Below, in pieces: positions 1-4,419 of a DNA stretch of 4,419 nucleotides. The stretch is from a virus. Taxonomy: Duplodnaviria; Heunggongvirae; Uroviricota; Caudoviricetes. Both the position numbers and the translations under genes were made by a program. The number at the start of each line of letters is the position of its first letter. The stretch's first letter is position 1. The stretch lies in the IMG/VR virus record IMGVR_UViG_2693429518_000007. The stretch is one strand, 5' to 3'. A model generated the notes under the pieces. The model ran no database searches and was not told the DNA's origin. It saw only the letters and a program-made list of their open reading frames with translations.

Positions 1-140
1 TCCGCGAAATGGCGCGGCGGTAAGTATGGCTGGGGTTTCCTCCATTGCTCCAGAAAATGCACCGGGTTGTCAGGTTGACCATACGCTTAAGTGACAACCC
101 CGCTACAACGCCCTCTGTTATCAATTTTCTGGTGACATTT

Positions 141-183
141 GGCGGTATCAGTTTTACTCCGTGACTGCTCTGCCGCCCTTTTT
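141..183 (+). terminator. Possible intrinsic terminator: GC-rich imperfect stem (GGCGG ... GCCGCC) followed by a TTTTT run
   Basis: GGCGG at 141-145 and GCCGCC at 172-178, immediately followed by TTTTT at 179-183. The stem is long-looped and imperfect, so this is weak. It sits about 50 nt after a frame-2 stop at 92-94. Confidence 0.2.
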
Positions 184-276
184 AAAGTGAATTTTGTGAT
201 GCGGTGAATGCGGCTAAGCGCACGCGGAACAGTTAAAACCAAAAACAGTGTTATGGGTGGATTCTCTGTATCCGGC

Positions 277-297
277 GTTAATTGTTAACTGGTTAAC
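277..297. repeat. Three tandem GTTAAY hexamers (GTTAAT-T-GTTAAC-TG-GTTAAC), each nearly or fully palindromic
   Basis: Read directly: GTTAAT at 277-282, GTTAAC at 284-289, GTTAAC at 292-297, about 55 bp upstream of the ATG at 353. An adjacent CCTGG-aggca-CCAGG inverted repeat lies at 303-317. Confidence 0.3.
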
Positions 298-352
298 GTC
301 ACCTGGAGGCACCAGGCACTGCATCACAAAATTCATTGTTGAGGACGCGATA

Positions 353-541
353 ATGGAAACGTTATTACCAAACGTTAATACGTCTGAAGGTTGTTTTGAT
401 ATTGGTGTTCTGCTCAGTAATAAAGCGTTTACTGAGGATGCCATTAATATGCGGAAATATGAGCCTTATCTGCTCAATGATAATTCCATACTTTCCCGAA
501 TTGCTCTTCTTGAACTTGGTATTTTCGGAGAACAGCAGTGA
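353..541 (+). CDS. Hypothetical small acidic protein, 62 aa (METLLPNVNTSEG...)
   Basis: ATG at 353 is preceded by GAGGA at 341-345 (7-nt spacer), so I prefer it over the track's 248 start. The stop overlaps the next start (GTGA). The region is visibly AT-rich. I recognise no family. Confidence 0.5.
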   Translation: METLLPNVNTSEGCFDIGVLLSNKAFTEDAINMRKYEPYLLNDNSILSRIALLELGIFGEQQ

Positions 542-726
542 CCTCAGCATTTGCACTGGTGATGACCGTTTTTCTTATAACGGGTGAGCCGCAGAATGTA
601 ATTACCGGAATTTATGACAGTAAGTCATCCTGCATTCAGGTAAGGGACGAACAAAAAATCCCCGGTGAATGCCTCCCGTTAAAAAAAGTGTCGCTGAACC
701 TGAATAACGAAATACCGGCTGGATAA
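538..726 (+). CDS. Hypothetical small protein, 62 aa, with hydrophobic N-terminal segment (SAFALVMTVFLITG) and two Cys
   Basis: GTG start at 538 is preceded by GGAG at 527-530 (7-nt spacer) and overlaps the upstream stop by 4 nt (GTGA), consistent with translational coupling. Same strand and context as the large gene downstream. Confidence 0.5.
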   Translation: MTSAFALVMTVFLITGEPQNVITGIYDSKSSCIQVRDEQKIPGECLPLKKVSLNLNNEIPAG

Positions 727-818
727 CCCTCCAGCCATATTAACGCCATACCAACGGATTAAAAATACCAGCAATGGCAGGAATTTGTTCATCCTTAAAA
801 TGGTTATGAGGTTTATCA

Positions 819-3236
819 ATGAACGCTGATAAAGAAGAAATTGCACTATATTACGAAGCCAAAAATGACAAAGTCAGAAAACGCCTTGGGATTAAAGGTG
901 GTTTTTACTGGCGCACAGCAAAAAAATTATCGGTTGCAATATCACGCGGTGTTGCTGCAATGGACGATGCCGGATTTGACGAAGAGGATTTTAAAAAACC
1001 CATCCGCGTCCATTTACCCGTTGTGAATGACCTTCCACCGGAAGGTGTGTTTGATACTGAATTCTGCAACCGATACGAAAAAGGCGGAGAAGATGGTATC
1101 ACAATGATACTTATCGCGCCCTCTGTTCCGGACAAACCAGCCAGTACTGACAATACCAACGTCAACGGCGAAGACATGGCTAAGATTGAGGAGAATATGC
1201 TTCTTCCGGTTTCAGGTCAGATTCTGCCTGTTCGCTGGCTGGCGCAACACAACAGCGAAAAACCGGTCACGCACGTTTCACTGGACAAACTGCGCGCATT
1301 ACATAACGCACAGGATGAAAAACTTCCCGCCGTTACCGCGCTGGCCATCTCAAATAAAGCAGTGCAACTCGAACCGCTGGAGATTCGGGATTTGTACAAA
1401 CTGGTGCGAGACACTGACAAAGTTTTCCCCGCCCCCGTAAATTCGGACCTGGGACTGATGACCTCTTTTATCGAAGCATACCTGGGCGCTGACTACACCG
1501 ATCGCGGTCTGCTTACAAAAGAGTGGATGAAAGGAAATAGTGTTTCACGCATCAGCCGCACGCCATCCGGCGCTAACGCTGGCGGCGGCATTCTTACCGA
1601 TCGCGGCGAAGGTTTTGTCCACGATGATGCGTCAGTGGCGCGTGACGTAGCCACTGGCGTACTGGCCCGTTCAATGGACGTGGATATTTATAACCTTCAT
1701 CCCGCACACGCTAAACGCATTGAGGAAATTATCGCTGAAAATAAACCGCCATTTACTGTGTTTTTCAGCAAATTCATCACCATGCCGGGCCACAAGGATT
1801 ACTCCCGCGCCATCGTGGTTGCGTCCGTGAAAGAAGCACCAATTGGTATAGAGGCTACTCCCCACCGTGTCACCGAATACCTGAATAAGGTGCTGACTGA
1901 AACCGATCATGCCACCCCTGATCCGGAAATCGTGGATATTGCCTGTGGCCGCTCCTCTGCCCCGATGCCGCAGCGTGTAACAAAAGAAGGAAAACAGGAT
2001 GATGAAGAAAAACCGCAGCCATCTGGCGCAATGGCAGATGAACAGGCAACGACTGAAGCAGTGGAACCGGATACAACTGAACATAATCAGGACACGCAGT
2101 CGATGGATGCTCAGCCACAGATAAATTCTGTTGATGCGAAATATCAGAAACTGCGTGCAGAACTCCATGAAGCCAAGAAAAACATTCCACCCAAAAATCC
2201 TGTCGATGCAGATAAATTACTGGCTGCTTCTCGCGGAGAATTTGTTGAAGGGATTAGCGACCCGAATGATCCAAAATGGGTGAAGGGGATCCAGAGTCGC
2301 GATGATGATGACCAGAATCAGGATAAAGCGGAACAAAACAGCCCAAATGCGTTACAAAACGAGCCAAAAACAAAACAACCAGAACCAGTAGTGCAACAAG
2401 AACCAGAAAAAGTTTGCACCACATGTGGTCAGACCGGTGGCGGCAACTGTCCTGACTGTAGTGCGGTGATGGGGAACGCAACCTACCAGGAAACATTCGA
2501 TGAAGAGAATCAGGCTGAAGCTCAGAAAAATGATCCGGAGGAAATGGAAGGCACTGAACATCTGCACAAGGAGAACACTGGCAGCGATCAGTATCACGCC
2601 AGCGATAATAAAACTGGCGAAACAGCAAATCCCTTAATTAAAGTGAACGGTCATCATGAAATCTCATCCACCAGCAGGTTGTGGCACCATCTGATGATTG
2701 ACCTTGAAGCAATGGGAAAAAATCCTGATGCGCCAATAAACGCTATAGCCGGTAAGTTTTTTGATCCGGCAACCGGAGATATGGGGCCAGAATTCAGCAA
2801 AACTATCGATCTGGAAACCGCAGGCGGGGTCATCGATCGGGACACCATTAAGTGGTGGCTGAAACAGTCACGCGAAGCACAATCCTCCATTCTGACCGAT
2901 GAAATCCCGTTGGATGATGCACTGCTGCAATTACGGGAATTTATCGACGAAAACTCCGGTGAATTTTTTGTTCAGGTCTGGGGTAACGGTGCAACTTTCG
3001 ACAACGTGATTTTACGCCGTTCATATGAACGGCAGGGGATCCCCTGCCCGTGGCGTTACACCAATGATCGCGATGTAAGAACGATGGTTGCTCTGGGACT
3101 GGTGATGGATTTCGACGCAAGAACGACTATTCCATTCGAAGGTGAACGCCATAACGCCCTGCACGATGCGCGTTACCAGGCAAAATACGTTTCAGCCATC
3201 TGGCAAAAACTGATCCCGAGTCAGGCTGATTTTTAA
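819..3236 (+). CDS. Prophage exonuclease, 805 aa: RecE (exodeoxyribonuclease VIII)-like N-terminal and central region, acidic low-complexity linker, CxxC-x7-CxxC zinc ribbon, and a C-terminal DEDDh-type 3'-5' exonuclease domain (Rv2179c-like)
   Basis: Uninterrupted 2418-nt ORF. ATG at 819 is preceded by GAGG at 808-811 (7-nt spacer). C-terminal motifs read directly: D628-L-E630 (MIDLEAMG), D728 in [11 protein letters not shown]778-x4-D783 ([10 protein letters not shown]). Zinc ribbon C533/C536/C544/C547 at nt 2415..2459. N-terminal resemblance to Rac RecE is from memory only. Confidence 0.9.
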
Positions 3237-3250
3237 TGTTCAACCCGGAT

Positions 3251-3278
3251 CGCCGCTAACGGCATATAGTTAGCGGCG
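3251..3278 (+). other. Perfect 10-bp inverted repeat (CGCCGCTAAC / GTTAGCGGCG) with an 8-nt loop, forming a stable hairpin in the exonuclease-xis intergenic region
   Basis: Read directly; arms are exact reverse complements. In RNA the stem can extend about 3 further pairs with G-U wobbles (3248-3250 with 3279-3281). No U-tract follows, so it is not a canonical intrinsic terminator. Confidence 0.45.
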
Positions 3279-3294
3279 GTTGTGAGATATAGCT

Positions 3295-3498
3295 ATGAGC
3301 AGCATATTTTTAACCGAAAATGAATTGCAAACGTTAACGGGCTGCAAATATGCAAGCCACCAGCGCAACTGGTTAATAAAAAATGGGCTTCCGTTCTATA
3401 CCAATCGTAGTGGAAAACCGATCGTCAGTCGGGAACTGTTTACCTGTATAAAAACTTTACCACCACGTGAGGCTGAACCTGATTTCGGTGCGATCTAA
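3295..3498 (+). CDS. xis: Excisionase-like protein (DUF4224-type small DNA-binding protein), 67 aa
   Basis: Small ORF immediately upstream of the integrase, with its stop overlapping the integrase start (TAATG), as in lambda xis-int. The sequence (LTENELQTLTGCKYASHQRNWLIKNGLPFY) matches my recollection of prophage excisionase-like proteins; not verified by search. Confidence 0.7.
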   Translation: MSSIFLTENELQTLTGCKYASHQRNWLIKNGLPFYTNRSGKPIVSRELFTCIKTLPPREAEPDFGAI

Positions 3499-4317
3499 TG
3501 GGAAGACGAAGGAAAAATCCCGAACACGAAAAATTACCGCCAAAGGTATACCCCAATAAATATAGTTATGTATGGAAACCGACATCCAGAGAATCTGTAA
3601 CCTTAACTGCAATCGAGGATGGTTTAGCCGCATTATGGAAAAAGTATGAAGAAACGGTTAACCATCGCGATCGCGCAATGACATTTGGGCGTTTGTGGGA
3701 AAAATTTCTCGCCAGCGCCTATTACAGCGAGCTTAGTCCTAGAACTCAAAAAGATTATCTGCAACATCAAAAAAAGTTGCTGGCCGTATTCGGTAAGGTG
3801 CTGGCCGATTCTGTAAAACCAGAGCACATCAGACGATACATGGACAAAAGAGGCGAGCAGAGTAAAACGCAGGCAAACCATGAAAAAAGCAGTATGTCGC
3901 GCGTTTATAGTTGGGGGTATGAACGAGGGTATGTAAAGGCTAATCCTTGTGCCGGTGTAAGTAAATTCAAGGCAAAAAACCGAGAGCGCTATGTGACTGA
4001 CAAAGAATACCAGGCCGTATTAAGCGTGGCTCCTGTGCCTGTTTTTATCGCGATGGAAATTGCATATCTGTGCGCAGCAAGGATTTCCGATGTGTTATCT
4101 CTGAAATGGGAACAGATCGGAAACGATGGGATCTTTATCCAGCAAGGTAAAACAGGAAAGAAACAGATAAAAGCCTGGAGCCCCCGCCTGCAATCAGTTA
4201 TAGAAAAAGCCAAACAACTCCCCAAGTCGGCCTATGTAATCAGCAATCAGTACGGCAACCGTTACATGTATAAAGGATTTAATGAAATGTGGGTTGAGGC
4301 AAGAAATTTAGCAGGAC
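3498..4317 (+). pseudogene. int: Lambda-family tyrosine integrase, 3'-truncated by IS insertion: about 273 native codons, then 9 IS-derived codons (LNRPGNPGD) and a stop at 4346
   Basis: N-terminus MGRRRKNPEHEKLPPKVY resembles lambda Int. Box I arginine in AARISDV (R195) and a QQGKTGKK motif (K218) are present. The downstream HxxR, His and catalytic Tyr region is missing because the reading frame runs into IS sequence at about 4318. Confidence 0.85.
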
Positions 4318-4419
4318 TGAACCGCCCCGGGAATCCTGGAGACTAAACTCCCTGAGAAAGAGGTAAACAGGATGACTAAAAATACACGTTTTTCCCCCGA
4401 GGTCCGTCAACGGGCAGTT
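4318..4419 (+). mobile_element. Left end of an IS629/IS3411/IS1203-like IS3-family insertion sequence (terminal inverted repeat plus start of orfA), continuing beyond the window
   Basis: The sequence from TGAACCGCCCCGGGAATCCTGGAGAC onward matches my recollection of the IS629 left terminus, with the typical IS3-family 5'-TG end. OrfA start MTKNTRFSPEVRQRAV follows at 4372. Exact boundary is placed from memory. Confidence 0.85.
4372..4419 (+). CDS. IS3-family transposase OrfA (helix-turn-helix subunit), N-terminal 16 codons only; partial at window edge
   Basis: ATG at 4372 is preceded by AGAGG (7-nt spacer). The translation MTKNTRFSPEVRQRAV is the N-terminus I recall for IS629/IS3411 OrfA. Confidence 0.8.
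   Translation, partial: MTKNTRFSPEVRQRAV

Follow-up and report, generated by a model that had tools for sequence, protein, structure and literature searches.

An IS629 element interrupts the integrase gene of a lambdoid prophage in O55:H7-type Escherichia coli

Introduction

Insertions of IS629 into prophages, and prophages that do not excise and have a disrupted int gene, are already well described in the O55/O157 lineage of Escherichia coli. Sub-types of IS629 have been described by Rump et al., and 62% of the IS629 copies in O157 genomes were found to be located in prophages (PMC3271280). The closest described cases are the prophages Sp3, Sp11 and Sp12 of O157 Sakai, in which Int is disrupted; they were predicted to be nonexcisable and were not among the prophages yielding circular forms (Asadulghani et al. 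2009, PMC2669165).

Here, we analyzed a stretch of viral DNA of 4419 bp, referred to below as the window, which is the entire contig CYAH01000074.1 of the E. coli draft assembly GCA_001284785.1 and stops inside an insertion sequence (IS). The locus resembles Sp3, Sp11 and Sp12 in that the prophage is likewise lambdoid, belongs to the O55/O157 lineage and has lost a functional int; the loss of excision is predicted in both cases and was in Sakai also observed. It differs in the prophage concerned (the presumed serU-type equivalent of Sp14), in the integrase allele and in the strain. Our main reading, to which we assign a probability of about 0.9, is that IS629 transposed into codon 274 of the int gene of a lambdoid prophage in O55:H7-type E. 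coli, leaving a catalytically dead product.

Results

The window and its parent prophage

The window is the early-left arm of a lambdoid prophage, with all of its genes on the + strand (Table 1). The stop codon of the DUF4224 open reading frame (ORF) and the start codon of int, as read from the sequence, share one base (TAATG), and this overlap, together with the match to phrog_1266, suggests that the ORF encodes the Xis of the prophage. Farther upstream, the DicF gene precedes dicB, as in the dic operon of the Qin prophage. The exonuclease has an N-terminal ExoVIII/RecE region (PF06630, aa 56-187) and a C-terminal Rv2179c-like 3'-5' exoribonuclease domain (PF16473, aa 623-795), set apart by a long acidic, low-complexity stretch with a Cys-rich 15-residue motif.

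Table 1. Features of the 4419-bp window. L002, L006, L007 and L009 are loci with full copies of the IS used for comparison.
Feature	Position	Strand	Remarks
DicF antisense sRNA gene	127-178	+	Rfam RF00039, 77 bits against a gathering score of 48; full-length
dicB	353-541	+	
DUF1482 gene	538-726	+	
ExoVIII/Rv2179c-type exonuclease gene, 805 aa	819-3236	+	
Putative excisionase gene, DUF4224, 67 aa, intact	3295-3498	+	Pfam PF13986, 56 bits; PHROG phrog_1266 'excisionase', E = 7e-21
Native 5' part of tyrosine integrase gene, codons 1-273 and first base of codon 274	3498-4317	+	100% identical to intact O55:H7 int
Hybrid truncated ORF, 282 aa	3498-4346	+	Deposited as CTT57734.1, 'site-specific recombinase'
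Left end of IS629, first 102 of 1310 bp; contig ends here	4318-4419	+	102/102 identical to full copies L002, L006, L007 and L009
IS629 left inverted repeat (IRL), TGAACCGCCCCGGGAATCCTGGAGA	4318-4342	+	Inverted-repeat pair 2501-2525 / 3786-3810 in L002
Shine-Dalgarno-like AAGAGG, 8 nt upstream of orfA ATG	4358-4363	+	Putative; read from the sequence
IS629 orfA, first 16 codons (MTKNTRFSPEVRQRAV)	4372-4419	+	Start of L002 CDS 2555-3768, 'IS3 family transposase, programmed frameshift'

From position 1 to 4317, the window was 100% identical, with no mismatch, to complete genomes of E. coli O55:H7 (USDA5905, CB9615, RM12579, DEC5B/D and TB182A). In these relatives, an intact int adjoins tRNA-Ser/mtfA at the end of a lambdoid prophage of ~47 kb, with the structural genes of the prophage upstream of int. 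The prophage carries sodC and an EspF-repeat effector gene besides the ExoVIII-type recombination gene; in USDA5905, a tail-tip gene of the prophage contains an internal stop. From its cargo and its site, this prophage is presumably Sp14/CP-933U-like and located at serU. The int carried by O157:H7 genomes, which have the Sp14/CP-933U-type prophage, is ~89.5% identical in DNA, and the coverage of the window by these genomes stays below 80%. Among other serU-type integrases, those of the Escherichia phages vB_EcoM-606R7 and vB_EcoS-689R5 matched at 95% and that of the Salmonella phage ST64B at 57%.

The junction and the hybrid ORF

The first mismatch against the O55:H7 strain USDA5905 fell at position 4318, and a three-way alignment placed the switch point between C4317 and T4318, where the IS begins with its canonical TG. 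Codon 274 combines C from int with TG from the IS into a Leu codon, and NRPGNPGD follows. The ORF consists of 273 native residues, nine IS-derived codons (LNRPGNPGD) and the stop codon TAA at 4344-4346. An earlier note, made from the letters of the DNA, had the integrase frame crossing into the IS at about codon 274, reading nine IS codons and stopping; this proved exact, the product sharing 273 residues with the 341-aa Int of the O55:H7 relatives.

A second, independent assembly, a Logan contig of the sequencing run ERR134540 that was seen in seven samples, yielded this junction and its 282-residue product again. None of the 5,426 complete E. coli genomes searched (0 of 5,426) covered the junction, and an exact-pattern scan of the GTDB genome representatives for it was empty. 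The literature searched gave no hit for either the run accession ERR134540 or the IRL string.

Identity of the insertion sequence

An IS3-family element with the left end seen in the window was found at thousands of places in E. coli. Its full copies are 1310 bp long and have 25-nt terminal inverted repeats and an orfA/orfB pair with a programmed -1 frameshift; against their left ends, positions 4318-4419 showed 0/102 mismatches (E = 2e-45). The segment is thus an IS terminus, as the earlier note had supposed. To call an element IS629, we asked that its DNA match a named reference at about 95% or better, a criterion here applied to the window's 102 nt (8% of the element). These 102 nt were identical (102/102) to the copy annotated as IS629 in JQ347801 (phage JLK-2012 of the O55:H7 strain DEC5E), and they open with a TG-starting terminal inverted repeat of ~25 nt that matches the IS629 IRL. 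By this sequence identity, the inserted element is IS629 (IS3 family).

The JLK-2012 copy differed from the reference copy in L002 at 5 of 1310 positions. This variant is also found on chromosomes and plasmids of O145, O26, O103 and O111 enterohemorrhagic E. coli (EHEC), where the window's 102 nt are again identical. The variant of O157 Sakai, in contrast, differs from it at 58/1310 positions over the full length. Its copy in AP000422 (VT2-Sakai), 95.6% identical, is annotated as IS629 with a 25-nt IRL and IRR and is called IS1203v in phage Stx2 II; it was identical to the window at 96/102 positions, and the window IRL differed at 1/25 positions from its annotated 25-nt "inverted repeat from left end of IS629". 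With 6/102 differences against zero for the variant of O55:H7 DEC5E and non-O157 EHEC, the Sakai-type IS629/IS1203v variant was rejected as the source of the insertion. We also considered IS1203, IS3411 and other IS3-family elements; the DEC5E / non-O157 EHEC variant of IS629 was identical over all 102 nt.

The orfA reading frame begins 25 nt past the new int stop and is read in another frame than int. With the orfA ATG at 4372 on the int strand, the IS is oriented as int, which is the orientation that the earlier note had given it.

Catalytic residues lost from the integrase

We mapped the catalytic residues by a phmmer alignment of the intact 341-aa allele of the O55:H7 relatives to lambda Int (PDB 1z1b). 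The two proteins have the same domain order as seen in the lambda Int structures (PDB 1z1b, 1p7d and 1ae9), and the catalytic Arg, the Lys hairpin, the H-x-x-(R/K) motif, the second His and the Tyr align. Upstream of the break, and kept in the window allele, are R195 (R212 in lambda Int) and the Lys hairpin GKTGKK at residues 217-222 (SKTGVK in lambda Int). Downstream of it, and absent, are H285 and K288 of the FHDLK motif (H308 and R311 of FHELR), H308 of the GHK motif (H333, likewise in GHK) and Y317, which stands nine residues past H308 as Y342 stands nine past H333 in lambda Int. The break after residue 273 takes away four of the six catalytic positions, the nucleophile Y317 included.

Accordingly placed C-terminal losses had been claimed by the earlier note, which listed the second Arg, the His residues and the nucleophilic Tyr in the missing segment and would have been refuted by a Tyr encoded upstream of 4318. 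The His residues and the Tyr were correctly placed, Y317 aligning downstream of codon 273. The residue that it called the second Arg is a Lys (K288) in this family; lambda Int has Arg311 there, and the window allele ends before that motif. K288 is probably compatible with activity, because close relatives sit in deposited temperate phage genomes. A Lys at the position of lambda R311 appeared as HDLK in 48/48 of the homologue fragments covering the motif, among them fragments from Salmonella and Klebsiella. In the intact int, the FHDLK motif (residues 284-288) is encoded at 7347-7361 of the comparison locus L001.

The intact O55:H7 allele has the full catalytic set of the tyrosine recombinase / lambda Int family and scored 44.1 bits against the PF00589 profile (cut-off 27.1). 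The window allele scored 39.4 bits, aligning to positions 23-124 of the 172 in the profile only, and its catalytic set is incomplete; judged by these residues, it is a pseudogene of the family. Owing to the loss of H285, K288, H308 and Y317, its product is catalytically dead, with no DNA cleavage or rejoining and no strand exchange. The truncated protein, in which the N-terminal region, the core-binding region and the first catalytic Arg are all retained, may still bind DNA.

Origin of the junction

The most likely event is a simple insertion with duplication of the target GAC, and we consider it quite probable. In such an event, IS629 (1310 bp) would transpose into codon 274 of the prophage int and duplicate the 3 bp GAC (4315-4317), leaving the 3' remnant of int beyond the IS; translation would then run nine codons into the left inverted repeat of the IS and stop. 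The predicted right junction is CCGGGGCGGTTCA-GAC-AGATATCTGGGATCGCC / GAC-AGATATCTGGGATC, followed by tRNA-Ser and mtfA. This judgment draws on the 3-bp duplications at other copies of the window's IS variant, AGC in L002, GAC in cif (L007) and TAC in JLK-2012; the VT2-Sakai copy of IS629 has a duplication of 4 bp.

We looked for the right junction in several ways. A protein search with the 68-aa C terminus of Int gave no 100% match and only fragments of other alleles at 93% or lower; 10 guessed chimeric peptides joining the right end of the IS to Int, with duplications of 2, 3 and 4 bp and several contig-start offsets, were all absent from the protein collection; and exact-pattern scans of the GTDB genome representatives and of JGI metagenomes were empty. 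These negatives are weak: the strain is missing from the collections searched, and the guesses hung on where contigs end and how genes were called.

The left flanks were similar at three of seven IS629 copies, reading tttagcaggac in the window (4304-4317), tttgaggac in cif (L007 1597-1610, where GAC is the duplicated triplet) and ttttagaggc in ydfR (L006 1598-1612) immediately before the element. The likeness may reflect a target preference of IS629; the sample, at seven copies, is small.

Possible read-through into the transposase gene

Transcripts passing through xis-int may run on into IS629 orfA. Between xis-int and orfA on the + strand, we found a single weak terminator-like site, inside int (4024-4038), and the count was no higher than in shuffled sequences; as no terminator-like site beyond chance separates the genes, read-through of xis-int transcripts into orfA is possible as far as the sequence goes. 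The early-left operon should be silent in a repressed lysogen. Control of read-through by RNA structure, blocking or gating it, was considered and rejected. The predicted fold of 4290-4419 was no more stable than those of shuffled sequences (z = +1.27), and the only pairing of interest, between AUCCUG in the IRL (4331-4336) and CAGGAU over the orfA start codon (4369-4374), is a weak stem of 6 bp, too weak to argue from. Both arms of this stem are certain to be present only in transcripts entering from outside the IS.

Discussion

Alternative explanations

Two other accounts of the junction were weighed against a simple insertion. As the window is a whole 4419-bp draft contig ending in a multicopy repeat, the joint could have been an assembly artifact at the end of a short-read contig; however, the Logan assembly of ERR134540 has the same junction and product across its seven samples, and the sequence changes over precisely where the IS starts with TG, so that we reject the artifact as hardly credible. 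The joint could also have arisen by an IS629-mediated rearrangement, whether deletion of adjacent DNA, inversion or recombination of one IS629 copy with another; the 3' end of int, attL and perhaps flanking host DNA would then have been deleted or moved. IS629 is described as generating deletions in O157 (Background text, PMC3271280), not all copies are pristine insertions (the one in ydfR, L006, lacks a clean duplication, with AGGC against AGGT), and no search route found the right junction. These searches were weak tests, however, and most of the copies compared have clean 3-bp duplications, and we regard a rearrangement as unlikely. The integrase is equally dead whether the IS was inserted simply or the region was rearranged.

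Without a functional Int, the prophage would no longer excise by itself, and we infer that it is unable to do so on its own. The integrase could nevertheless be truncated and the prophage not locked, if an integrase acted in trans or if precise excision of IS629 restored int. The upstream excisionase gene is intact, and an IS-excision enhancer is known from EHEC and could promote precise excision of IS629. The specificity of tyrosine integrases for their own att and arm sites speaks against an integrase acting in trans. Moreover, each of the seven O55:H7 complete genomes listed has one copy of int, and the median across 332 genomes was 1 place per genome, so complementation by a near-identical integrase is not expected. 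Complementation between prophages is documented in O157 Sakai, yet the Sakai prophages with a disrupted int gave no circles (PMC2669165). On balance, we find mobility by either route improbable. More specifically, the insertion could act as a conditional switch, with release of the prophage confined to stress. On SOS induction, antiterminated early-left transcription could raise the expression of the IS629 transposase, which together with the IS-excision enhancer could drive precise excision of the IS and restore int. We give this scheme very little credence. A prophage that is unable to excise on its own thus stays our preferred reading, and the loss of int may not be what immobilizes it, given the defects already present in the USDA5905 relative, where the internal stop in the tail-tip gene points to another possible cause.

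Significance and a related insertion

The locus represents ordinary prophage decay and no new biology; each partner of the junction matches a known sequence at 100%. What is new is confined to the insertion site, which none of the 5,426 complete E. coli genomes searched contains. In annotation, the 282-aa CTT57734.1 is the product of a pseudogene. The prophage has probably become fixed in this lineage; in relatives, it carries the EspF-repeat effector gene. The junction, common to at least seven sequencing runs, could serve as a lineage marker.

An IS629 copy also abuts the int gene of an Stx1a phage, phiSTEC801-Stx1a (L010, PQ600365.1), where it occupies 2501-3810 and has 30 differences in 1310 bp. 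The int CDS annotated in that phage (3743-4768) runs on the opposite strand and takes in the final 68 nt of the IS, and the 3' end of the gene may be IS-derived.
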